Of a DNA stretch of 42,047 nucleotides, positions 1 to 42,047 are shown one piece after another. Source of the stretch: a virus (Duplodnaviria; Heunggongvirae; Uroviricota; Caudoviricetes); IMG/VR virus record IMGVR_UViG_2660238591_000003. One strand, 5' to 3'. The translations under genes and the position numbers were made by a program. Within the stretch, counting starts at the first letter, position 1. The number at the start of each line of letters is the position of its first letter. The notes beneath the pieces were generated by a model. It did not search any database and was not told the origin of the DNA. It saw only the letters and a program-made list of their open reading frames with translations.

Positions 1-549
1 TCAGCTAGCTGGAAACTTTTTATACAGAGTTGAGAGCCCTACTCCATACGTTTTTGATACGCTTTGTCGTGATTCACCGGTTGCCATCCGCTCCCCCATT
101 TCCCGCCATTGCTCATCCGTGAACTTAGGCCTGCGACCACCAACTCGCCCTTTTGCCCTGGCTACGGCCAGCCCTGCTAAGGTACGTTCGCTATTAAGAT
201 CAGATTCATATTGTGCTGCGGAAAGGATGTTACGAAAGTTATAGCGGCCGCTGGCTGTTTTGAGATCCACGCCATCGGTAATACTGCGGAAGTTGATACC
301 CTTTTCCTGTAACTGCTGGAACATCAACAGCGCATGCAGAACGTTGCGGCCTATCCTGTCCAGCTTCCAGACCACCAGTTCATCCCCCGGCTGCATAGTG
401 GCGATCAGCCGTTTTAGAACCGGCCGATTCGATTTCCTCCCGCTGGCATGCTCTTCAAAAATTTTCTCACAACCCGCTGACTTGAGCGCCGTTAGTTGCA
501 ATTCAGTGTCCTGGTGGTTTGTTGATACTCGGGCATAACCGTAAATCAT
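1..549 (-). CDS. DNA invertase, small serine recombinase (Hin/Gin/Pin/Cin family)
   Basis: ATG at 547-549 (the track ORF 1..708 carries a non-ATG upstream extension). 182 aa beginning MIYGYARVSTNHQDTELQ with the catalytic-Ser motif, GRRPKF and a C-terminal HTH ending STLYKK. Lies beside inverted crossover sites. Confidence 0.9.
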   Translation of the reverse strand: MIYGYARVSTNHQDTELQLTALKSAGCEKIFEEHASGRKSNRPVLKRLIATMQPGDELVVWKLDRIGRNVLHALLMFQQLQEKGINFRSITDGVDLKTASGRYNFRNILSAAQYESDLNSERTLAGLAVARAKGRVGGRRPKFTDEQWREMGERMATGESRQSVSKTYGVGLSTLYKKFPAS

Positions 550-601
550 GGGATTTCTCCTGTTATGAAAACAGGAGAAACGGCGAAGCATCACCAGATT
601 T

Positions 602-1132
602 TTGATGGTTATAAAAAAGGTTGGTTTGGGAGAAGGCTCAGCATTACCCGTTGGCGTACCTGTTCCGTGGCCTTCAGCCACACCGCCGACAGGCTGGCTG
701 AAATGCAACGGTGCCGCTTTTTCTGCTGAAGAATACCCGGAACTGGCAAAGGCTTACCCGACAAATAAATTGCCTGATTTACGTGGTGAGTTTATTCGTG
801 GCTGGGATGACGGGCGTGGAGTGGATAGCGGTCGTACTTTATTAACGAATCAAGAGCATGCAGTAATTTCTCATAATCATGGAATACCTACAAAAGTGGG
901 GTCAGTTACTAATATCCCGTATGGAATAGAACAGGTTATATCTGATGAAACCATTTTTTCATCAGCAAAAACAGTTGGTGTGGATTACTGGTCTAACAGT
1001 GAAAGAGTTTTTACTTATACCTCTGGTGGAAGAAATGGTGCTGAATCAGTGAGTTCACCTGATGCCTCCTCTTTAATTAAAGAAACCAGACCACGGAACC
1101 TAGCATTTGCGTATATCGTGAGGGCTGCATAA
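602..1132 (+). CDS. alternative tail-fibre C-terminal variable segment (silent in this orientation; would fuse to the constant part after inversion)
   Basis: Track ORF. GLGE junction codons at 621-635. Sequence LPDLRGEFIRGWDDGRGVDSGR is a typical phage fibre C-terminal domain. No independent promoter or RBS context; lies immediately inside the crossover site. Confidence 0.7.
   Translation: MMVIKKVGLGEGSALPVGVPVPWPSATPPTGWLKCNGAAFSAEEYPELAKAYPTNKLPDLRGEFIRGWDDGRGVDSGRTLLTNQEHAVISHNHGIPTKVGSVTNIPYGIEQVISDETIFSSAKTVGVDYWSNSERVFTYTSGGRNGAESVSSPDASSLIKETRPRNLAFAYIVRAA
607..634. repeat. invertase crossover site (hix/gix-like), left copy
   Basis: Reverse complement TTCTCCCAAACCAACCTTTTTTATAACC resembles hixL TTCTTGAAAACCAAGGTTTTTGATAA. 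A 15-bp core at 621-635 is repeated inverted at 2592-2606. Confidence 0.7.
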
Positions 1133-1734
1133 TGGTGAAAGCAAAATTAAACAGTGCGTTTATTGCCACCGTGGCAGGTGAAATCACTGTGTACAACTAC
1201 CGGGGCGACACCCGCGAATACATATCCTCATCGGTTGAGTATCTGCCTGTGGGGGTGGGTATTCCTGCCAATTCCTGTACCGATGCGCCCGGCACACATA
1301 AAGCTGGTTATGCAATCTGCCGTTCTGCAGATTTTAACTCATGGGAATATGTGCCAGACCATCGCGGTGAAACGGTATATAGCACTGAAACAGGAGAATC
1401 AAAAGAAATCACAGCTCCGGGTGATTACTCTGAAAATACAACTACTATCGCCCCGTTAACGCCATTCGATAAATGGGATGGTGAGAAATGGGTGACCGAT
1501 ACTGAGGCACAGCATAGCGCCGCAGTAGACGTGGCAGAAGCACAGCGCCAGTCGCTGATTGATGCTGCTATGGCTTCCATCAGTCTGATTCAGCTGAAAT
1601 TGCAGGCCGGGCGGCAACTGACGCAAGCAGAAATCACTCGCCTTAACGCTGTGCTGGATTACATTGACACGGTGACGGCAACAGATACCAGCACCGCGCC
1701 GGATGTCATCTGGCCTGAACTGCCGGAGGCGTAG
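1132..1734 (+). CDS. tail fibre assembly protein (Tfa, alternative copy)
   Basis: 200 aa. ATG overlaps the stop of the preceding segment (ATAATG). C-terminus LDYIDTVTATDTSTAPDVIWPELP is the conserved Tfa motif. Confidence 0.8.
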   Translation: MVKAKLNSAFIATVAGEITVYNYRGDTREYISSSVEYLPVGVGIPANSCTDAPGTHKAGYAICRSADFNSWEYVPDHRGETVYSTETGESKEITAPGDYSENTTTIAPLTPFDKWDGEKWVTDTEAQHSAAVDVAEAQRQSLIDAAMASISLIQLKLQAGRQLTQAEITRLNAVLDYIDTVTATDTSTAPDVIWPELPEA

Positions 1735-2149
1735 GCCATTCAATATCTGGAGCACTGGAGGTATCAACCAGTTCCAGTGCGTCCAGATAATCCAGCCACA
1801 AATTATATTGCGCCAGTTCCTCACTTTTCAGACGACCAATCGCCGCTTTGCCAGGCCACTGATGAGTATTGATGTAGGTATTGACTTCAGAAACCAAAGA
1901 TATTTTTTTCATTTCAGCCGTCAACACCTCATCCTCTTTTGAAGGGGGTGGGGAATTAATCCATACTGGCCGTCCTGAACTGTCAGCGCCAATTTCTTTC
2001 CCTTCTGGATGCAGCCCAAGAAATTGCTCATATGTTTCTCTGGTAATTTCAATAACATCATCAGGAAGCGTTCCCGCATCCTCATATTCTGGAAACAATT
2101 CTTGCAGATAAAAACTTTTACTTCCGGGTGAAAAGAATACTGAGTTCAT
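1706..2149 (-). CDS. tail fibre assembly protein (Tfa, expressed copy)
   Basis: 147 aa. C-terminus LDYLDALELVDTSSAPDIEWPTPP is a Tfa motif. Convergent with the other Tfa and overlaps its 3' end. Confidence 0.8.
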   Translation of the reverse strand: MNSVFFSPGSKSFYLQELFPEYEDAGTLPDDVIEITRETYEQFLGLHPEGKEIGADSSGRPVWINSPPPSKEDEVLTAEMKKISLVSEVNTYINTHQWPGKAAIGRLKSEELAQYNLWLDYLDALELVDTSSAPDIEWPTPPAVQAR

Positions 2150-2151
2150 TC

Positions 2152-7789: not shown

Positions 7790-8095
7790 CTATTCCTGAA
7801 CAAAATAAAGATGGCTCGAGGCACCAAGGTTTGTTTTCGTCGGGTATTCAGGGGCTCCGTTGTCTGTCATGACCACCAGTGCGCCAGATATCCCCAGATC
7901 CGGATACTGAGCCAAAAGGTTAACCCCCGGCACCAGGGGGACGCCCATTAACAGAGGCTGCGCGCCGCTATCCATAACGTCCATTATCCAGCCAGCATCG
8001 TCGCGCCATAGCACGCGGAGCGTGTAGCTTATGTCGCCCAGGGTGATGCGAAACTCCTGGTTATCAGGGATCATCGGAATCTCATTAACGCTCAT
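7790..8095 (-). CDS. phage tail protein (small)
   Basis: 101 aa; tight packing in the tail operon. Confidence 0.5.
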   Translation of the reverse strand: MSVNEIPMIPDNQEFRITLGDISYTLRVLWRDDAGWIMDVMDSGAQPLLMGVPLVPGVNLLAQYPDLGISGALVVMTDNGAPEYPTKTNLGASSHLYFVQE

Positions 8096-24768: not shown

Positions 24769-25276
24769 GCTCTCACCTCCGATTATTTCGGGGTGCTATG
24801 TGTAATGGGGATCAGGCTCTCGGGCTGCATTAACAACAAGGCTTGTTGAGGAGGTTTCCCGGAGCCTGAAAAAGAAAAGGCCCGCGTATGCGAGCCTCTA
24901 TAAATTCTTTGCCACTTCCCGGAGTGGCCACGCTCATGCCCTTGAGCTGCTGTCGCATCATCGCCGCTTATCACCGGTGCGCGTCTGGCTTTCGCGCTGC
25001 TTTACCGGAGCTATTTTTAATCTATGAACCCTGACCCGTCACTACACAGGCTCGCTCAATGGCGACTCGGGGCAGCATCATGACTGCTGCATTGCCTTTC
25101 GGCTACGGTGTGTCCGTTCTACTCTACATTTTCATACCCTCCAGAAACGGCAAAGCCCCGCGGGGTTAACCGCAGGGCTTTAAACGAAGGCAGTAACCCA
25201 TCGTTGGAGAGAAATTAACACAGATTCGGGAAAAGTAAATAGCTCACGATAAAATCGACAGCGATTAATTGGTGCT

Positions 25277-26107
25277 TTATCGAGTTATTGCTCGCAGTTG
25301 CGATTCGGCCCACGCTTCTTCCATGTCGAATTTGGTGATCAGCCGGTCGTAAAACGGCTTCACTGACTTTTTCCAGGTGTCCAGAGTAATGGCGTCGGTA
25401 ATAAGGCAAACAGCCGCATATGCCTCAGTCGAGGGGATCCGCTCATACCCGCGCCCGCCGCAGCGCTTGCAGTCGGCCATCACCGGCGCGCCCTGCTTTT
25501 CTGTCAGCGTCTTGCTGACAGCTTTTCCGCGCCCCTGGCAGTCATTACATGCGCAGCTGACGACCTTCTTCCCTTTGCAGGCCGAGCACAGCACCCGGGC
25601 CACCTCTTTCACCTCACGCCGATTCTGATGCTGCGAAGGGATAACCTTCAGCCCCCATTTTTTTGATTTTTGAATGATGTCTTTTGCGCAGCCAGAGATG
25701 CTGGTTTTCATACTAAAAACGTCAGCCTCAATGAACCCCTGCCCTGCGCAACATTCGCACCTCTTGACGCTGGCGGCGCTGCGGGAATAGTCCTCAAAAG
25801 CGAAGGTAGCAAGCTGGCGCATCACCAGCGGTTTAACCCCAGCGTCCAGTTTGCGCAGGGCAGCCACGCTATCGCATTTTGTCAGCGCATACTGGGCCAG
25901 CAGCTCGATCGCTCTCTCCCGATCGTTGTTGCTGATGCCCATCTTTCCGAGAAAGGCACTGTAGCCCATGGCGGCGCGTTCCTGGGTCATGCCCATGGCT
26001 GCCATGATGTCCGTTCCGGTCAGCGAGTCGGAGGCCGTAGCGCGCGGAGAGTCGCTAATCAGCGTCGATTTGGCGAAGTGGTATTTCACGGTGTTTTCGA
26101 GGTTCAT
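25277..26107 (-). CDS. Q: late-gene antiterminator Q (Cys-rich, phage 82/21-type)
   Basis: 276 aa containing several CxxC pairs (CECCAGQG, CSACKGKK, CNDCQGRG, CKRCGGRG). Position directly upstream of the lysis cassette. Confidence 0.75.
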   Translation of the reverse strand: MNLENTVKYHFAKSTLISDSPRATASDSLTGTDIMAAMGMTQERAAMGYSAFLGKMGISNNDRERAIELLAQYALTKCDSVAALRKLDAGVKPLVMRQLATFAFEDYSRSAASVKRCECCAGQGFIEADVFSMKTSISGCAKDIIQKSKKWGLKVIPSQHQNRREVKEVARVLCSACKGKKVVSCACNDCQGRGKAVSKTLTEKQGAPVMADCKRCGGRGYERIPSTEAYAAVCLITDAITLDTWKKSVKPFYDRLITKFDMEEAWAESQLRAITR

Positions 26108-26244
26108 GCAGCAGCTCCTGCCAACTGGTTAATGCGAATAAAATTGCGAAGAATGCGGTAGTCCACCAGCACCGAACCCGGGCGGCGATAAATGCGGAGG
26201 CGTGTCCAGCGCATGCGGATTACCTCAATCAGTTCTGATGTCAT
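26104..26244 (-). CDS. small Arg-rich protein (46 aa), not in the ORF track
   Basis: ATG 26242-26244 overlaps the RusA stop (ATGA) and its TGA overlaps the Q ATG (ATGA). [46 protein letters not shown], with GGGGGA upstream. Confidence 0.45.
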
Positions 26245-26603
26245 AAGTCCCCCAGTTCGGTGATGGTCAGCTCCAGCCTGCCGCCCCTGACGACGGGCAT
26301 CCGTATAACGCGGTAGTCGTCCACCAGCTGATCGTCCTGCCAGAATCCGGCCTTAGTAAGCGCGTCGAACGCGGCCTTCTGCAGGTTGTCCAGGTCACGG
26401 CGGCGGCGGGCAGGCATATGGCACTCGATGCGAATCTTCACCGGGCCGGAGATGCCGATATCCAGCAGCTGGTCTTTGATGATTTGGGCCACGCGGTCGC
26501 GGTAAGCCTGCCCTTCCGTGCTGATGTGCGTACGCCCGCGATTGTGTCGGTAATAGCGGTTATTACTCGGTGGCCACGGCAATGTGATTTTGTACTCGCT
26601 CAC
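26241..26603 (-). CDS. rusA: Holliday junction resolvase RusA
   Basis: GTG start (track ORF has a longer low-complexity extension). 120 aa: [32 protein letters not shown]...[25 protein letters not shown]. Confidence 0.85.
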
Positions 26604-26890
26604 GCTTTCACCTTCCCCTCTTTCAGCCAGATAACCTGCGTGCGGGCCATGCCCTCCAGCGCGCACTCCTTTGCATAATCCGCGTCGACCAGGCGAGTGC
26701 GGCGGTCGATTTCGTCGTGACAGCTGCTGCATGCAATGGTGGCAATCAGATCAGGCGGCTTAATTCCGGTACCGCACAGCCCGGCCAGGCGAATATGCGC
26801 CAGCACGCTTGTGTCTGGGTTGCCGTTGCACACGCCGGGGATCCGAACCTGACATTCGCGACCGCGCGCAGCTTTGCGTAAATCCGCCAT
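26600..26890 (-). CDS. Cys-rich phage protein (DUF1364/YbcO-like)
   Basis: Start at [23 protein letters not shown]; Cys cluster [11 protein letters not shown]. The track ORF's N-terminal extension is low-complexity and is discounted. Confidence 0.6.
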
Positions 26891-26892
26891 GC

Positions 26893-27102
26893 TCACCCCC
26901 AGACCTTCTGACGGAGTGACCGCGGCGTACGTTCCTGCCGGTGCGCCTCCGGCAGCCGGGCGCTGACGGTCCAGGTGACGTAATCGGGATTCAGGCTTCG
27001 CTCTACCTTCACGCCGCGGCGCCGGTATTCCGCCATGAGCTCGTCGGCCTGCTGCGTGGTGCACTCGGTGTGCTGGAACCATGTTTCTTTCATCGGCATC
27101 AC
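26893..27102 (-). CDS. hypothetical small protein
   Basis: 69 aa; ATGA coupling with the upstream gene. Confidence 0.5.
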   Translation of the reverse strand: MMPMKETWFQHTECTTQQADELMAEYRRRGVKVERSLNPDYVTWTVSARLPEAHRQERTPRSLRQKVWG

Positions 27103-27698
27103 CCCACGAAGCTCATGAGCTGCGCAGCGGCATTATCCGCGTCGCTACGGCTCTTGAATGCCCTGGACAGGATCCAACGCCACAGAACATCGAGTGCGGC
27201 CCTGTAGAGTTGCTGGAACTCGGTTTCGTCCATATTGGCGAAGGCGATGCTGCGGGGGTGTTTGCGGAGGGTGCCGTCAGGCAGCTGTATCGCGTCGTAG
27301 TGGCCGGATTCGATGGTTACCCAGGCGCGGTAGGCGTCGAATGACTTGCAGGCGCTGATGCTGCCCGTGCGCTTATCAGCGATGCGCTCGAGATATTGCT
27401 CAGCGGCATCCAGCAGCGCCCCTTCGTTCCCGCCGTAGGAGGCCAGAAATCTGGCATAGCCGGTCACCAGCTTGCGTTCGTTGGAAGAGATCGCCCCGCC
27501 GGTTGGCTCCCAGTATTCGAACCCGAGGTTTAAAAGCGCGAAGAAGCGGCGGTGGAAAGCCGGATTGCGGACCTGTTTGAAGTCGGCTACCAGCACGGCG
27601 CCGAGTTTGATTTTTGATTGCAGAATATCGCTGGTCTCCGGCGTCGCGGGGATCAGGATTCCTGATGACTGCTTGATGAGTTGTAGTTCGTGCGCCAT
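27099..27698 (-). CDS. hypothetical early protein (DUF1367-like)
   Basis: 199 aa; RBS GGAGAGAAACC before the ATG. Confidence 0.5.
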   Translation of the reverse strand: MAHELQLIKQSSGILIPATPETSDILQSKIKLGAVLVADFKQVRNPAFHRRFFALLNLGFEYWEPTGGAISSNERKLVTGYARFLASYGGNEGALLDAAEQYLERIADKRTGSISACKSFDAYRAWVTIESGHYDAIQLPDGTLRKHPRSIAFANMDETEFQQLYRAALDVLWRWILSRAFKSRSDADNAAAQLMSFVG

Positions 27699-27732
27699 GG
27701 TTTCTCTCCGTGGCGCAGTAGGTTACGGTTGT

Positions 27733-27981
27733 TCAGACCGTTGATTTCATATTATCAGAAGGTTGGGTTACCCGGTAGCCGAGACGGTTAATAAACTGCA
27801 TAAAACCATTAGGAGTAAAGACCTCTTCATCATCCAGCAAAGGCCGCATAGAAACCATGCCATTGACGCGATAAATTAGATGCCTGCCCGATGAAGGAAA
27901 GCTAAACACCACGCAGCCGTCAGACCTTCTTACAATGTCATACCAGTTGTCTTCTGACGTTTGCAAAGCTGAATCACTCAC
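27733..27981 (-). CDS. hypothetical small protein
   Basis: 82 aa; RBS AAGGGAGAAC before the ATG. Confidence 0.5.
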   Translation of the reverse strand: MSDSALQTSEDNWYDIVRRSDGCVVFSFPSSGRHLIYRVNGMVSMRPLLDDEEVFTPNGFMQFINRLGYRVTQPSDNMKSTV

Positions 27982-28098
27982 ATTTATGTTCTCCCTTCGA
28001 GCGACTAACAGACGCGATTAAAGATTGTCGGCAGCAGCATCAGAGGGTTACGCAAATTGCGGTATTCTGAAAAATGCGCGCCAGCCTTAAGCGCAATT

Positions 28099-28332
28099 CT
28101 AATAAAACCAGTCGTCAGCGCTTTCCCAGGTATCCTGGAGGATTGATTCAATTTTCTTTTTATCGTCCTTGTCACCACCAAAAACACTTAACCCATCGGC
28201 CCCGGCACGGCGGATTGTGAGCCTGCAATTGTCATAGTGATCATTCAGGCGCTTAAGCAGTTCTTTCTCCAGTGCTGGTACTGCGCCTTTAGGAAGTTCT
28301 TTCATGCGATCAATGGTTAATTCAACTTTCAT
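28099..28332 (-). CDS. dinI: DinI-family protein (SOS-inducible RecA modulator homologue)
   Basis: 77 aa: MKVELTIDRMKELPKGAVPALEKEL...KKKIESILQDTWESADDWFY, closely resembling E. coli DinI (...ISEILQETWESADDWF). A consensus LexA box lies immediately upstream. Confidence 0.85.
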   Translation of the reverse strand: MKVELTIDRMKELPKGAVPALEKELLKRLNDHYDNCRLTIRRAGADGLSVFGGDKDDKKKIESILQDTWESADDWFY

Positions 28333-28350
28333 AATGGCCCCCATTGCATG

Positions 28351-28370
28351 TACTGTGTTTTTATACAGTA
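28351..28370. promoter_or_regulatory. LexA (SOS) box
   Basis: TACTGTGTTTTTATACAGTA fits CTGT-N8-ACAG. It lies 7-19 nt upstream of the dinI-like start codons and overlaps a TATAAA -10-like element. Confidence 0.8.
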
Positions 28371-28430
28371 TACCTATGCGCGGAAATGATCAACGTTTTA
28401 AGAGCACAAATTGTTAATTTTCTGTCAGTT

Positions 28431-28460
28431 GTAAAAAAAGAAAACCCGCCGTAGCGGGTT
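28431..28460 (-). terminator. intrinsic terminator (- strand)
   Basis: Stem AACCCGC/GCGGGTT followed on the - strand by TTTCTTTTTTTAC; insulates the dinI promoter. Confidence 0.6.
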
Positions 28461-28823
28461 GAATTAGCAGTGTTATATTAAGCGGCAATTTCTTTCTGCC
28501 GGCACAATCCCGAGAGATTCGCCCTCTGTATCGCATCATCAATGAGCACCTGTATGACCATGAGGCAAAGCGTTATCCAACTTGCATTCATCTTTTTCAA
28601 TCAGCAAAGGAGTGGTTAGTGCTGTGAGTGGGCTTTGTTCACTTCATGGTAGATAAATCAGCTATGGATAAGTGATAAGAGGTGAAATCAATCCGAATTA
28701 ACAACCTGAAGCACATTAATCGGAACACAGATATTAAAATCCTAAAGTCTAGTAACAAATAGCCGATATGAGATATTGCTTATCAGTTTAAAAATCATCT
28801 ATTGAAAAAATGGGGGGGAGGCG

Positions 28824-29387
28824 TTGAAGCGAGTAGAGCGCGATTTTATCTGTCTGTTTAATTGTGTGTGGTATCAAGATTTCCCTGTGTTCAAAGGTGA
28901 ATATATCAACCGTTCCAACTGGACCATTCATGTTGGCCTGGTCATGCGCGAGTGTGCAAAGTTAATGGGCGCAAGAACATTTTTTGAACAAGGCGGGCGT
29001 ACCGATGCGGTCCTACAATATCCAGACAATCAAATTTTAACCTATGTTGAGTGGGAGTATAATCAGGCAGACAGAGATAGCGTTAACGAGTTAGACAAAC
29101 TGCTTGAAAAAAACGACAAGTGCTATTTCTCCACATTCATCTCATATTGTCAGCATGAAAACATCAATATTGTTATTGAAAAAGCAAGTAGAATATGGAG
29201 TGAAGCAAGCAGGCCTTTGATTTTTTTTCTTATCACCTATGAGCCTCAAACGAAAAAACGCCGCCATTTTTTAGAACTCAGAACTTATTTTTTCTCAAAC
29301 GGCAAAAGAAAACTAGTTCGCAAACAACCTGCGCTTCCATGGGATATTGAGCAACGAAAATACAATGTCGAAGAAGATGCAGGATAG
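28824..29387 (+). CDS. hypothetical protein in an AT-rich island (candidate accessory/defence gene)
   Basis: 187 aa. TTG start preceded by GGGGGGAGG. Opposite strand to all flanking phage early genes. No motif I can assign. Confidence 0.55.
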   Translation: MKRVERDFICLFNCVWYQDFPVFKGEYINRSNWTIHVGLVMRECAKLMGARTFFEQGGRTDAVLQYPDNQILTYVEWEYNQADRDSVNELDKLLEKNDKCYFSTFISYCQHENINIVIEKASRIWSEASRPLIFFLITYEPQTKKRRHFLELRTYFFSNGKRKLVRKQPALPWDIEQRKYNVEEDAG

Positions 29388-29426
29388 AAGAGACATAAGG
29401 TTTTCACGACAGTCTCGTTCCGAGCC

Positions 29427-29808
29427 CTAACTAAAATATTCTGTTCGGAGCAACCAAATAGCTCTGGCTTTGCTGTGACCATGTTCGCGGTACCAACGCC
29501 TCTCTAGGTCCGCTTCTCGCTCATGGTGGACCAAAATCAAATCTAAAATGACGTGGCTAAGCGGGAGTACATAGTGAATGACAGGATGCTCCGGGCAGCA
29601 CCATACTAATTCAGTTCCCGTCAGAGGTAGGCGTTGCTTCATGATGGGATGAGCGCTCCCTCCAGACAATCCATGCGACAGCCGCCTCCCATGATATATA
29701 TCCATTACCGCCATTTTTCGCTCTGCGGAGATTAACTGCATCACCAAACCTTTCAATGATGAATTTTTCAAATTCTATGCGTTTTTCTTCGTCGATTGTT
29801 GAATCCAT
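29427..29808 (-). pseudogene. possible decayed gene (two overlapping frames)
   Basis: Track ORFs 29611..29808 and 29427..29771 overlap in different frames in AT-rich DNA. Confidence 0.3.
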
Positions 29809-30087
29809 ACCTTCCCCAGAAGAGTCCTACGAATCGCTCTTATTGCATAAAAAATAGCATATACAATAGAGAGTGAAAAACCGACGTAGCGGGTTAACTT
29901 TATGTTACTCATGAGTCTTGTCTCGCTGCGACTTAAAAGCGGAACATTCTCGCGCAAGTTGCGTTGCTAAAGCTACGGGGTTGAATGGCTCTCCATGCCC
30001 ATTTAAGAAGGCATGCGGTGTGTAGTTGAACGTTATTTAAAACACAGATAGAATCAAGAAAAATCCTAAATAAATGGAATATTGTTT

Positions 30088-30468
30088 ATGGCTAAGAAAA
30101 TCGCATTACTGGGCTTTTCTGCTCTTTTTGTTGCAAGTGTTGCTTTTGCTGAAACGACAAGTAACTGGGTTGAGGTTACTACAGCTGATGATGGCATTTT
30201 TTCAGCAAAAAAAGGCACATTTAGAAATGTAAAAGGTGATTCATCTGCCTTGTTCATGTATCAAACAAAAAATAAAAAAGTAGAGTACTACAAAGTTAGT
30301 ATTAAAGATGCCGACTGTGATAGTGGATATGGGGAGATAAGATTCTTCTATATGGATGGGAAATTAGCTTTCAAAGGTGATTATGTTGCTGATGGGAACA
30401 GTGTTGGCGCAGGTATTGGTGATTTTATGTGTGGAGTCAGAATTGGACTTAACACACAAAAAAGTTAA
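30088..30468 (+). CDS. hypothetical secreted protein (moron)
   Basis: 126 aa. Signal peptide MAKKIALLGFSALFVASVAFA/ET; two Cys in the mature part. AT-rich. Confidence 0.6.
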   Translation: MAKKIALLGFSALFVASVAFAETTSNWVEVTTADDGIFSAKKGTFRNVKGDSSALFMYQTKNKKVEYYKVSIKDADCDSGYGEIRFFYMDGKLAFKGDYVADGNSVGAGIGDFMCGVRIGLNTQKS

Positions 30469-30882
30469 ATGAGGGGCATTTGTTAAAAAACAATAGCCCC
30501 ACATTAGATCAATATTGGCTCCGGCATTTCTGGATAAAAGCTTCTATGCTACGGCGCTCATAGCGAACAATCTTAGCGCTGAACTTTACACGGGGCCAAT
30601 GTAGACCGGTGTCGGTGTTCTGTATTCCATTTACATAATGTTTTTTGCGTAATTCCCAGCTTCTGGCATACCTCGCCCGGAGTGAGGAGATCATCAGGTT
30701 GCTCAGTCATGTTATGCCTCGCTGTTATCTGGGGTGATGATTAGCAGCTTCCAGATGGCTGAGACATACATAGCCTGATGTTTCGCATCGACTAGGGCAT
30801 TATGCATGTCACCTTCAAACGGCATGTCCCGAGTTCTCCCTTTTCGCCGCTTTCGCGTCGCATATTCTCCAAACGGTATTTA

Positions 30883-31440
30883 TCAATCATTACTGTTATC
30901 CTCGCAGTAGTAGTGCCGTCCCTCTGGGTCAGTAGATACATGTCCGCAGATATCGCATTCAATTCCAGGAAGCACCGATTCTGACTGCGCTTTGATATGC
31001 AGTCGCGGTTCACCGTCTTTCGGCTCTGGCCACTGGCGGTTTTTGTTAACCGCCAGCTTTTCTACCATCGCCAGGGTAATCTGCTTATCACTGATACCGG
31101 CACGACGTTGCGCATCCCATAACAGGAATTGCATGTCAGCCCATTCGCTCATCTCGTCTGGTTCCGCAGCAGCCTCGATAGCTTCTTTGGAAAGGTGCTT
31201 CAGCGGACCAACTGGACCGACATCGCCGAATGTTTCATCTGACCATGCTGCATGTTCACAGCGTACCTGCTCACGGGCTATCGACTCCAGAACCCCATCA
31301 ATCACCTTCACTGCATCAGCCATTGCGTAGCCGAGATTACCGCCGTCGCTTTGTGCTGCTGCTTTGCTGAGTATTTCGCGTATCTGGTGCAAGCGATCAA
31401 GTGATACAGGACCGTGCGCCGGGTGGTTGTTAGTTGTCAT
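30883..31440 (-). CDS. hypothetical early protein (MazG-like/DUF550-like N-terminus with C-terminal Cys motif)
   Basis: 185 aa; RBS AGGTAGAGGA before the ATG. Ends CDICGH...CEDN. Confidence 0.45.
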   Translation of the reverse strand: MTTNNHPAHGPVSLDRLHQIREILSKAAAQSDGGNLGYAMADAVKVIDGVLESIAREQVRCEHAAWSDETFGDVGPVGPLKHLSKEAIEAAAEPDEMSEWADMQFLLWDAQRRAGISDKQITLAMVEKLAVNKNRQWPEPKDGEPRLHIKAQSESVLPGIECDICGHVSTDPEGRHYYCEDNSND

Positions 31441-33745: not shown

Positions 33746-33964
33746 CTACTTTGGTAATCCGTCAGTGGGATTTGGATAGAGATCAGGGCGCAGCTCGTGG
33801 GGGGTTACGCCTGTCATTTTGAAAATCGGGAAGATATAGCTTGGCGGGACGATCCCTTGGTCACGATTCTTCCAATGACTTACAGACATACTCGTCACAC
33901 CAAGCGCGATGCTGAGCTTTCTGGCAGAGCCAGCGGCTTTAATTGCTTTATCGAGTGCGGACAT
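33746..33964 (-). CDS. Cro/YdaS-like HTH regulator
   Basis: 72 aa with HTH (ARKLSIALGVTSMSVSHWKN). Divergent from the repressor gene; RBS AGGAGAAG. Confidence 0.7.
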   Translation of the reverse strand: MSALDKAIKAAGSARKLSIALGVTSMSVSHWKNRDQGIVPPSYIFPIFKMTGVTPHELRPDLYPNPTDGLPK

Positions 33965-34066
33965 GTGCTTCTCCTGCTTATTGATAGCAGAAGTAAACCA
34001 CAGATTTATACTTCATGCAAACTTTGGATTTATTGCGTGCATAAACCAAATATTTACAATGACCAT
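33965..34066. promoter_or_regulatory. immunity-region operator/promoter (OR-like), divergent promoters
   Basis: Palindromes CTGCTtattgatAGCAG (33974-33990) and TTTGGATTTAT...ATAAACCAAA (34023-34050). A TACAAT -10-like element sits 7 nt before the repressor ATG, which would give a leaderless mRNA. - strand promoter TTGCAT-17-TTTACT for the cro-like gene. Confidence 0.55.
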
Positions 34067-34456
34067 ATGAGAAAAGAAGAACCCAACCTCGTTCTGGTGG
34101 AGCGCCTTACTGAGATCACTGATCGCGGCGTTACCAAAGCAGACATGGCAAGAATAGCTGGAGTCACCCCTCAGGCCGTAAACGGCTGGTTCAAAAAAGG
34201 CGTGATTAGTAAGAAATCGGCACTGGCCATAGCCGACGCTGTTGGTATTTCTGTCGCCTGGCTACTCGGTGAAGACGTTGGGGAGAAAGACGGTCTCAAA
34301 CCGGACGAACAGCGTTTGCTCGAGCTCTACCGCCAGTTACCGGAAGAAGAGCAGCAGAACATGCTCCGCATTTTTGCGCTTCGCCTGAAAGAGTTAGATG
34401 AGCTGTACGAGAAGTACATGAAGGGTCGGATTCGATCGCAAGGTGAGCAAACCTAA
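34067..34456 (+). CDS. phage repressor (cI/RacR-like, HTH only, no S24 peptidase domain)
   Basis: 129 aa with HTH (VTKADMARIAGVTPQAVNGWFKKG). No autocleavage domain present. The track ORF's upstream extension is discounted. Confidence 0.75.
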   Translation: MRKEEPNLVLVERLTEITDRGVTKADMARIAGVTPQAVNGWFKKGVISKKSALAIADAVGISVAWLLGEDVGEKDGLKPDEQRLLELYRQLPEEEQQNMLRIFALRLKELDELYEKYMKGRIRSQGEQT

Positions 34457-40659: not shown

Positions 40660-40857
40660 ATGGATGATATTTTGGTAACGTCAGACCTGACCAGTCGCTA
40701 CAAAATTTCACGCAAAACCCTTTGGTCATGGCAAAGTGCAGACACAATGCCTCGGGGCTTCGTATGCCCGTTCCCACCCCCTGACTGGCCCGGCAACCCT
40801 AACCGCTGGCGCTCTGAGTCAATCAAAGAGTGGGAGGATAAAAAGAAGATAAATTAA
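40660..40857 (+). CDS. xis: excisionase-like DNA-binding protein
   Basis: 65 aa beginning [26 protein letters not shown]; GGAGAGAG RBS. Convergent with and overlapping the integrase 3' end. Confidence 0.7.
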
Positions 40858-42047
40858 CTGAAGGGCTCTCCGATGATCTCTTCAAGATGGCTCTGCCAAA
40901 CGCGGAGCCAGTGTTTCTGATCATCGATATAGTCATGAAGGTTGTAATGCGCCATAACCCCCACCATCTGATGCCCGAGCAGCTTTTCAATTACGTGCGG
41001 CGGGCAACCTAACTCAGAGAGATTTGTGGCTATCGTCCGCCTCATATCATGAAGCGACCACTCTGCCATACCTGTTCCATTCCAAATAGAACGGGCGTAA
41101 TTGGATGCCACAGGTGAATGAACGGGCGAATCTTTGATCCCGCCATCAATTTTACGTTGTGAAGTCACCAGGTGATTGGTGTTTATTTTCTTGAGGTGAT
41201 TTCTGACCAGGTTAACGGCGGCGTCTGAGAGTCCCCTTCTAATATGTACCCGAGTTTTATAACTGCCCGCAGGCACGACCCACTCATTATCATCCAATCG
41301 AAACCATGATCTCTCACTAAGTCGAATCTCAGCCGTACGGCATCCGGTAAGCATAATAAATTTCACCAGGAAAACGGACTCTATCGACATATGGCTTTTC
41401 AACCACTGATAGATTTTGCGCAGATCGTCATCGTCCATCCTGCGAGTTCTCTTTTTAGGCTTTTGCCCGACATCAGATGGCAGTAATCCCTCGAGTGGGT
41501 TTGAGGCGATCACACTTCTGTTAACGCAGAACCTAAAGGCCCGTTTGCACAGCGAAAGCATGTAATGAGCCATCACCCTGCTTTCTATAGAATCGAAGAC
41601 GTTGATCCAGTGCATTTTCGCTGTGTTATCGACTTTGACATTCTTCATCGGTTCGGCGATATGTTTCTCAAACACCTGGCGATAGTAATCGACTTTAACT
41701 AGCCCGTTAGCGATACAGTGCCTTTCAATCCAGTAATTGAACGCTTCGGCAACGGACATCGCTTCCTGTCGGGTCTGCTTATCCAGCTTCACCTGCTCTC
41801 GCGGATCCAGTCCCTCAGTTAACCAGTTTCTGAATTGTTGGCGACGCTCTCTTGCCTGGGTGATACTCATTGCAGGATAATCACCAACATTGAGTTTTAC
41901 CGCTTTACCGGCCCAGCGATACCGATAGAAAAATGATATTTTTCCGGCCTGGCTGATTCTGGCGTTGAGCCCGTGCGAATCAGAAATAATCTCGATATCA
42001 TCTCTTTTCTTGCCGAGCGCCTTCCTGAGCTTTGTGTCGGTGATCAT
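40854..42047 (-). CDS. int: tyrosine integrase (P4-type)
   Basis: 397 aa; ATG at the window edge (42045-42047). C-terminal catalytic region with R...HxxR...Y spacing ([25 protein letters not shown]). Confidence 0.9.

Follow-up and report, generated by a model that had tools for sequence, protein, structure and literature searches.

In Salmonella, induction of the prophages Gifsy-1, -2 and -3 is driven by an operon in which a terminator and a LexA box are followed by dinI, an antirepressor gene and irsA (Lemire, Figueroa-Bossi and Bossi, PLoS Genet 2011; PMC3121763). The box and the dinI homologue lie downstream of the replication genes, palindromes resembling Rho-independent terminators occupy the equivalent place in all three Gifsy prophages, and a small protein whose start codon is non-canonical is encoded between dinI and irsA (PMC3121763). 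Expression of GftA, GfoA or GfhA from P_BAD is alone enough to induce the prophage, an effect abolished by a frameshift; induction is blocked by lexA3(Ind-), and non-polar deletions of dinI and irsA have no significant effect on it (PMC3121763). The antirepressor binds a short repressor that is not cleaved and strips it from DNA, and an A2B2 antirepressor-repressor complex has been published for GfoA/GfoR and GftA/GftR (PMC3121763). Either of GfoA and GfhA can inactivate GfoR as well as GfhR, repressors with different operators, with GftR as the exception that neither of them inactivates (PMC3121763). In S. Typhimurium D23580 one SNP in the -10 element of PdinI-gfoA abolishes Gifsy-1 production and induction and its reversion restores phage (PMC5322425), and the Gifsy dinI genes are up 14- to 23-fold with nalidixic acid (PMC8072944). 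The dinI-irsA region and homologues of GfoA have already been noted in Escherichia, Citrobacter, Klebsiella and Enterobacter (PMC3121763).

The same logic, a LexA-repressed antirepressor binding a non-cleavable repressor, has been described for Tum of coliphage 186 and AntC of phage N15, both cited in PMC3121763 and compared here by description. Tum is also linked to a DinI-like sequence, being a single protein of 146 aa with a DinI-like second half (PMC3121763). In the Qin prophage of E. coli K-12 the repressor DicA is controlled by a small antirepressor, Rem, which was found with GfoA as the PSI-BLAST seed (PMC10448788). A different route to SOS-dependent induction is seen in the autocleaving repressors lambda CI and P22 C2, whose lambdoid early region with divergent repressor and cro genes resembles the arrangement reported below.

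Here, we describe a locus of the Gifsy type in the window, by which we mean the whole 42,047-nucleotide stretch of viral DNA that was analyzed. In E. coli strain ES7, a stretch of the chromosome is 99.9% identical to the window, and there the prophage sits between yciI/tonB and kch and extends from the DNA invertase and tail-fiber genes to the integrase. From this comparison, the window holds practically the whole prophage. Between its replication genes and the Q region, the placement found in Gifsy-1 and Gifsy-3 of S. Typhimurium ATCC14028, lie the following features.

28433..28460, minus strand: terminator-like hairpin AACCCGCTACGGCGGGTT of 7 pairs, 5 of them G-C, followed by a T-run (tail TTCTTTTTTT).
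28365..28393, minus strand: putative promoter with -35 element TTGATC at 28393..28388, placed from its position and its homology to the promoter of the Gifsy prophages.
28372..28367, minus strand: putative -10 element, first option, TATACT, with a 15-nt spacer and overlapping the LexA box.
28370..28365, minus strand: putative -10 element, second option, TACTGT, with a 17-nt spacer and likewise overlapping the box.
28351..28370, read 28370..28351 on the minus strand: LexA (SOS) box TACTGTATAAAAACACAGTA, which reads TACTGTGTTTTTATACAGTA on the plus strand.
28332..28099, minus strand: dinI homologue of 77 aa, first gene of the operon (Pfam DinI, PHROG 189, "DinI family protein" in PGAP).
28077..28095, minus strand: weak hairpin with CATTTTT, directly after the dinI stop codon.
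27981..27733, minus strand: gene for a GfoA-type small antirepressor of 82 aa (ORF82), with a GTG start and an AGGGAG Shine-Dalgarno sequence, between dinI and irsA.
27099..27698, minus strand: irsA homologue (DUF1367) of 199 aa, third gene of the operon, labeled NinB/Orf-like in PHROGs.

This is the Gifsy-1/Gifsy-3 order of terminator, LexA box some 18-19 nt from the dinI ATG, dinI, small non-ATG ORF and irsA, and the operon architecture is identical in Gifsy-2 (GftA/GftR) and in Gifsy-1 of LT2, with the spacer between dinI and the antirepressor gene conserved at the DNA level. The window thus shares with the Gifsy module the LexA box, dinI and terminator palindrome, a small non-ATG ORF (∼73-82 aa in this group), homology of the ORF itself and a short HTH repressor of the GfoR/GfhR/GftR (DicA/RacR) group that lacks a cleavage domain. 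The locus differs from Gifsy-1 and Gifsy-3 in its E. coli host and in the myovirus-like late region of the prophage, and it is known here from sequence alone. We consider it highly probable that it is the Gifsy-type SOS-sensing module of an E. coli lambdoid prophage, a LexA-repressed dinI-antirepressor-irsA operon whose antirepressor inactivates an uncleaved repressor after DNA damage.

The LexA box itself is well defined. It contains the only CTGT-N8-ACAG in the 42-kb window, a loose pattern that by itself is not rare, with at least one occurrence in 31 of 100 shuffled sequences. It is also the only 20-mer of the window with three or fewer mismatches to the LexA consensus of E. coli, TACTGTATATATATACAGTA, and 100 shuffles gave no such 20-mer. 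The other 20 matches to CTG-N10-CAG in the window have GC-rich spacers, unlike LexA boxes. The dinI ATG follows the box after an 18-nt gap, catgcaatgggggccatt, which carries a GGGGG Shine-Dalgarno sequence. An identity of 19/20 with the box of Gifsy-1 (14028) is obtained only with one of the two read on the opposite strand and was discarded; with both oriented relative to dinI, 15 of 20 positions are identical by hand count, and the two are the same class of box, with nothing closer claimed.

A strict sigma-70 scan did not call a promoter where the LexA box lies, and the hexamers are therefore assigned only by their position and by Gifsy homology. At the offset of TTGATC, Gifsy-1, Gifsy-2, SEN34, Klebsiella phi18.2 and mEp237 carry TTGAAT, TTGAAC or TTGATC. 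About 40 nt separate this element from the G+C-rich hairpin and T-run at 28460..28433. The hairpin is upstream of the promoter controlled by LexA and would protect the operon against early-right transcription arriving from upstream.

The dinI product matches the DinI family PF06183 over its full length (profile positions 1-63 of 63, E 3.8e-26, 91.6 bits with a gathering cut-off of 24.2) and PHROG 189, "RecA filament binding protein DinI." An alternative ATG at 28344 would give a protein of 81 aa, although this start lacks a Shine-Dalgarno sequence, and the 77-aa form is also the PGAP call in the 99.9% identical E. coli genome. The initial annotation had placed a LexA box immediately upstream of a 77-aa DinI homologue, and this is correct. 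Its focus on DinI as the key gene here was misplaced, because in Gifsy the dinI deletions are without significant effect and it is the small ORF that is both necessary and sufficient (PMC3121763). It had also stated that no antirepressor was visible in the window. This is wrong, as ORF82 is the next gene of the dinI operon, 117 nt downstream; with its GTG start, no Pfam family and the name "hypothetical protein" in every database, it is easily missed. In contrast to Tum, dinI and the antirepressor gene are separate ORFs at this distance, with dinI first.

The 117-nt spacer (28098..27982), which ends in the AGGGAG Shine-Dalgarno sequence, is kept in sequence across genera. We do not claim a structured RNA here, since RNAalifold gave -5.8 kcal/mol for the spacer with zero compensatory pairs, and thus no covariation support, and Rfam gave no match over 26900-30900. 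The weak hairpin at its start is possibly a partial terminator or attenuator and might end some of the transcripts before they reach ORF82; together, the hairpin with its T-run and the conserved spacer may limit expression of the antirepressor.

We assessed the relationship of ORF82 to the Salmonella antirepressors at both the DNA and the protein level. For GfoA, GfhA, GfoR and GfhR the comparisons rest on the gene ends given in the primer tables of PMC3121763 and on close relatives, rather than on full-length sequences. In S. Typhimurium 14028S (CP001363), dinI of Gifsy-1 is STM14_3210. The 5′ primer segment of gfoA, AGTAATTCAGCTTTGCAAAAG (MSNSALQK), matches ORF82 (MSDSALQT) at 19 of 21 nt, and the 3′ segment RRLGYRVTPPSDI matches NRLGYRVTQPSDN of ORF82 at 33 of 40 nt. 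The corresponding protein ends are NRLGYRVTQPSD in ORF82 and RRLGYRVTPPSD in the primer-encoded GfoA; the primers give GfoA the end PPSDI versus PSDNMKSTV in ORF82, with a 1-nt length difference upstream of the stop codon. In Salmonella phage SEN34 the equivalent ORF matches the gfoA primers at 21/21 and 37/40 nt, and its product is identical to ORF82 at 75 of 82 residues (91%). As a control, the gftA and gftR primers matched the LT2 Gifsy records exactly and gave no match on the window. The N-termini of GfoR and GfhR (MKEKTHQ and MTKVKHH) and the GfoA C-terminus PPSDI were absent among the proteins returned in the homologue lists. On these sequence comparisons, ORF82 is a homologue of GfoA, which has been defined experimentally.

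The relationship to Gifsy-2 is more distant. BLASTP detected no similarity between ORF82 and GftA (E 0.94), and GftA, a member of PHROG 4847, is detected from ORF82 by profile comparison only: with the ORF82 family profile, hhalign gave a colinear alignment of 64 columns (E 5.6e-5, probability 66%), in agreement with the distant relationship between the two kinds of antirepressor stated in PMC3121763. The same profile showed no detectable similarity to Rem (hhalign probability 0.2%), and no CTGT-N8-ACAG is visible in the ∼220 nt upstream of rem.

The closest sequenced phages are Enterobacteria phage mEp237 (gp48-gp50) and SEN34 (genes 54-56), in which the module has 90.8% and 81.4% nucleotide identity, respectively, with the LexA box in the same place. 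The mEp237 antirepressor is identical to ORF82 at 80 of 82 residues. In both phages, the antirepressor is annotated "hypothetical protein" and the immunity region differs from that of the window. PGAP calls the same ORF (27981..27733), and the exact 82-aa protein is present on 671 contigs; PGAP and the databases name the family "hypothetical protein," and its cluster listing is without informative names. Searches of Pfam and PADLOC with ORF82 returned nothing, as did a sequence search of the PDB, and its PHROGs, 340 and 1813, are of unknown function only. The AlphaFold model is of moderate confidence (pLDDT 68, pTM 0.40) and has four β-strands and a C-terminal helix; it gave no meaningful match among PDB structures (best E 5.2), and its sole match in BFVD is an uncharacterized homologue. 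These searches gave no relative of solved or annotated structure.

The third gene completes the Gifsy order. Its product matches Pfam DUF1367 (E 6.4e-93), the irsA primer pp644 matches at 36 of 40 nt, the N-terminus MAHELQLIKQS is identical, and the gap between ORF82 and this gene is 34 nt.

The presumed target of the antirepressor lies in the immunity region.

34067..34456, plus strand: prophage repressor of 129 aa, made up of an N-terminal HTH and a helical C-terminal domain that is conserved, and lacking an S24 peptidase domain.
33746..33964, minus strand: Cro-like regulator of the YdaS family (Pfam YdaS_toxin, 1.4e-13; "transcriptional regulator" in PGAP), divergent from the repressor gene.
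33994-34008 and 34042-34056, cro-repressor intergenic region: two copies of TAAACCAnAnATTTA (repeat family D1), candidate operators.

PGAP starts the repressor at a GTG at 34037, 30 nt upstream. In Pfam the protein matches HTH families only (HTH_3 at 1.5e-6, with Phage_CI_repr below its cut-off), which bears out the initial reading of a repressor with an HTH and no S24 domain. A hit to polyubiquitin chains in a PDB search with the repressor contained zero significant stretches and was dismissed as an artefact that arises when weak matches to a repeat protein are added up. The repressor shares 26% identity with GftR (E 3e-7) and 28% with its homologue DicA (E 5e-12), and the C-terminal motif LLxLxxQLPExE is common to all three. 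As in Gifsy-1 and Gifsy-3, it is short and HTH-only with a C-terminal domain of the GfoR/GfhR kind: at the 3′ end of the gene, 33 of 41 nt agree with the gfoR primer (EKYMKGRIR). Its N-terminal DNA-binding half, by contrast, diverges from those of Gifsy-1 and Gifsy-3, implying a different immunity, and its N-terminus MRKEEPNL differs from the MKEKTHQ of GfoR.

Compared with lambda CI and P22 C2, this repressor is about half the size and has no S24 domain, and SOS would be sensed via LexA instead of by the repressor. That it is nevertheless inactivated by RecA-stimulated self-cleavage as in lambda, with the LexA box incidental, is a reading for which we found no supporting point. A protein of 129 aa with no Peptidase_S24 match at E ≤ 0.01, in a prophage whose PGAP annotation includes no S24 or LexA-family protein anywhere, leaves self-cleavage with next to no credibility. 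The general conclusion of the initial annotation holds: the prophage receives its SOS input by way of an accessory locus under LexA control and not through cleavage of the repressor. It had pointed to further CTGT-N8-ACAG boxes ahead of antirepressor-like genes as the place to look, and in what is essentially the whole prophage there is no second box, the antirepressor gene being in the dinI operon itself. Given that the window holds nearly the whole prophage, the box of this operon is the only detectable LexA input.

Given that dinI is clearly present and LexA-controlled, and that ORF82 carries no Pfam family or informative name, the locus can also be read as no more than a cargo copy of dinI by which the SOS response of the host is tuned, with ORF82 an unrelated conserved hypothetical gene and induction proceeding by some other route, in essence the picture drawn by the initial annotation. 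To this the homology of ORF82 to GfoA, the Salmonella deletion results and the lack of any other LexA box or antirepressor-like gene in the prophage are opposed, and we asked what the arrangement in other genomes indicates. In all seven loci first examined (Gifsy-1 and Gifsy-2 of LT2, mEp237, SEN34, PHB10, a Klebsiella phage and E. coli ES7), exactly one CTGT-N8-ACAG box lies 17-20 nt upstream of dinI. A genomic scan with one genome per species, in genera that include Citrobacter, Enterobacter, Raoultella, Atlantibacter, Superficieibacter, Silvania and Leclercia, yielded 19 credible loci with an ORF82 homologue. The box upstream and an irsA homologue downstream are found in 18 of the 19, and dinI stands between box and antirepressor gene in 16 of those 18. 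The loci of Silvania and Leclercia have no dinI, and the box is ∼180 nt upstream of the antirepressor gene; the exception, L022, is a short contig on which the antirepressor gene has neither box nor dinI upstream. Because two loci keep the box directly before the antirepressor gene in the absence of dinI, the conserved partnership is that of LexA box and antirepressor, and the cargo reading becomes very improbable. The module is present at the nucleotide level in ∼75 of 5,426 complete E. coli genomes; natural lysogens such as ES7, PSJ-22 and NCTC11023 share 99.8-99.9% identity with the window across 27000-29500.

We then considered whether antirepressor and repressor belong together. Relative to gp39 of mEp237, a GfhR-like protein whose gene matches the gfhR primer at 19 of 21 nt of its 5′ end, the window repressor is 69-73% identical overall, with the HTH half at 55% and the C-terminal domain at 89%. 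This split fits the published inactivation of both GfoR and GfhR by GfoA and by GfhA despite their different operators, and from sequence it suggests that the antirepressor targets the repressor's conserved C-terminal domain (residues ∼68-125). Among 50,697 phage records, an ORF82 homologue occurs in 17 and a repressor homologue in 36, with both in at least 15 records, against an overlap of ∼0.01 expected under independence, a contrast that shared ancestry inflates. The overlap takes in distant pairs of 31-46% identity in Citrobacter, Salmonella and Aeromonas phages. In the genomic loci, a repressor homologue was found in only 6 of 18 within the 8 kb fetched, a count that is not decisive either way, because the two genes are 4.6-13 kb apart in complete phage genomes.

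These data also bear on the proposal that ORF82 is real and LexA-controlled yet acts mainly or only on the repressors of other prophages, with the resident repressor insensitive and the prophage induced in trans or never. Such non-cognate targeting is known, as the Fels-1 protein FsoA targets the repressor of Gifsy-2 and GftR is unaffected by either GfoA or GfhA (PMC3121763), and among the relatives of this prophage the identities of antirepressor and repressor are loosely coupled (65% and 97%, respectively, in PHB10; 96% and 73% in mEp237). However, a resident repressor whose C-terminal domain is so close to a GfhR-like one, and which ends like GfoR, is of the kind that GfoA-type proteins inactivate, and the two families strongly co-occur within single phage genomes, so we hold this alternative to be distinctly unlikely. 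Since the N-terminus of the repressor differs from that of GfoR, the cognate pairing of ORF82 with the repressor at 34067..34456 is something we infer for the E. coli prophage.

Under the favored reading, a LexA-controlled antirepressor operon directed at the resident repressor, host LexA on the box at 28351-28370 would cover the -10/start region in the undamaged cell and keep the operon silent, with the upstream terminator shielding the LexA-controlled promoter from read-through. The box, the gene order, the part homologies, the cross-genus conservation and the lack of a cleavage domain are read from the sequence. Upon DNA damage, activation of RecA would lead to self-cleavage of LexA and to transcription of dinI (28332..28099), the gfoA-like antirepressor gene (27981..27733) and the irsA-like gene (27698..27099). 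The 82-aa antirepressor would then build up and bind the 129-aa HTH repressor, probably through the C-terminal half of the latter; for the control by LexA, the small ORF being both required and sufficient, and the binding of antirepressor to repressor, the basis is the published experiments with the Salmonella orthologues. The repressor, still uncleaved, would be released from operators between cro and its own gene, and lytic development would follow. DinI would be co-expressed and probably modulates RecA filaments, but would not be the inducer.

The operon may also reach further. On the coding strand, no terminator-like site was found from irsA to the end of the Q antiterminator gene (27698..25277), and irsA, a 69-aa ORF, ybcO, rusA, ylcG and Q abut or overlap, which together make SOS read-through into Q possible. 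A more speculative extension, which we regard as fairly unlikely, is that the SOS transcript runs into Q (25277..26107) and primes the late genes in parallel with antirepression, with the hairpin after dinI, the 117-nt spacer and the non-ATG start setting the amounts of antirepressor and Q and hence a damage threshold that keeps induction reversible.

The mechanism described here has been known since 2011, and the locus is an E. coli copy of the Gifsy-type system of LexA, antirepressor and non-cleavable repressor. The only new points are an antirepressor family that is annotated "hypothetical" everywhere and a few minor regulatory leads, so the biological insight is small and the practical value is that of annotation. 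The family has relatives across the Enterobacteriaceae but no Pfam family, is of "unknown function" in PHROGs and is "hypothetical protein" in PGAP, and these labels lead automated or by-eye reading to conclude that such prophages have no visible antirepressor. Once the module is recognized, the E. coli prophage should be inducible via LexA by SOS-triggering antibiotics, and the module suggests that the prophage could cross-induce co-resident prophages with repressors of the GfoR/GfhR type.

Two of the loci related to the window carry a LexA box followed directly by the antirepressor homologue, and the module architecture can therefore do without dinI:

L026 (Silvania hatchlandensis), 7821-7840: LexA box, with ~180 nt and no dinI between it and the antirepressor homologue downstream.
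L027 (Leclercia MAG), 7822-7841: LexA box, with ~180 nt and no dinI between it and the antirepressor homologue downstream.

The Silvania prophage and that of Citrobacter werkmanii each have a second good LexA-like box on the early-left side, a few hundred nucleotides past the repressor gene; no counterpart of this second box was found in the window:

L013 (C. werkmanii prophage), 1758-1777: second box, TACTGTATATATTTACAGTA.
L026 (Silvania prophage), 1571-1590: second box, AGCTGTATATAATTACAGTG.

A further homologue of the 82-aa antirepressor is borne by contig JBEBQJ010000273.1, labelled as a Sphingobacterium MAG, which also has a DUF977-like gene typical of enterobacterial prophages related to the window. 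Neither dinI nor a LexA box is present in the ~450 nt AT-rich region upstream of the homologue, and the contig is probably a mis-binned fragment of an enterobacterial prophage with a different arrangement.

Where dinI is present, we examined the sequence that separates it from the antirepressor:

Window 27982-28098, minus strand: 117-nt dinI-to-antirepressor spacer, conserved in sequence across genera.

The conservation extends to Gifsy-1 and Gifsy-2 of LT2, where a very different gene, gftA, follows the spacer. The spacer opens with a hairpin and T-run (28095..28077, minus strand), the sequence of which varies by lineage, yet a hairpin remains. The spacer has no match in Rfam, and a covariation check on it detected none. 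At its downstream end, a minimal start-stop pair, ATG-TGA, and the GTG start of the antirepressor overlap (aaATGTGAgt, window 27978-27983). Among the antirepressor ORFs translated from six loci, GTG is the start in four (the window, mEp237, Gifsy-1 of LT2 and PHB10) and TTG that in SEN34, and the annotated start of the Klebsiella phage ORF is an ATG further upstream. Selection may favour the non-ATG starts as a means of holding translation at a low level.

PGAP places the start of the repressor at a GTG that precedes the ATG by 30 nt (window 34037-34066), giving 139 aa versus 129 aa, and the second candidate operator (34042-34056) would lie within reach of this extension and overlap it. The Gifsy-3 repressor is reported to have two in-frame starts, with the longer form, GfhR*, being specific to induction (Lemire 2011, PMC3121763).

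The early region of the prophage is lambdoid/Rac-like, with YdaS/YdaT-type cro and cII and RecE/RecT, and its late genes are of the contractile-tail, myovirus-like type; at the left end a DNA invertase adjoins alternative tail-fibre assembly genes. In E. coli strain ES7 the integration site lies between yciI/tonB and kch. The regions concerned are window 1-2150 and 40854-42047, with L029 and L030. On the strand opposite to the operon, a cargo island with a GC content of 35-46% versus 54-62% in the flanks separates the terminator/LexA box from the replication genes:

Window 28500-30500: AT-rich cargo island.
Window 28824..29387, plus strand: 187-aa ORF.
Window 30082..30468, plus strand: 128-aa ORF with a signal-peptide-like N-terminal start, MFMAKKIALLGFSALFVASVAFA.

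SEN34 and mEp237 differ from the window in carrying other genes at this position. The 187-aa ORF has no match in Pfam, PHROG or PADLOC, and its only 34 homologue clusters, from enterobacteria and Pseudomonas, are all labelled hypothetical. Its structural model is confident (pLDDT 86.7); the top PDB matches are YaeQ-family proteins (E 3e-5, but with a TM-score of only ~0.38), and EcoRV appears lower in the ranking. The protein could have a restriction-endonuclease-like fold, and its gene may serve in defence or as a moron.

Downstream of the antirepressor, the coding strand showed no terminator-like site from irsA to where the gene for the antiterminator Q ends (window 25277-27698, minus), the first strong one lying beyond it:

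Window 24899..24876, minus (coding) strand: terminator-like site downstream of Q.

Because no such site precedes the end of Q and the genes of this interval adjoin or overlap, the LexA-controlled transcript could reach into Q.
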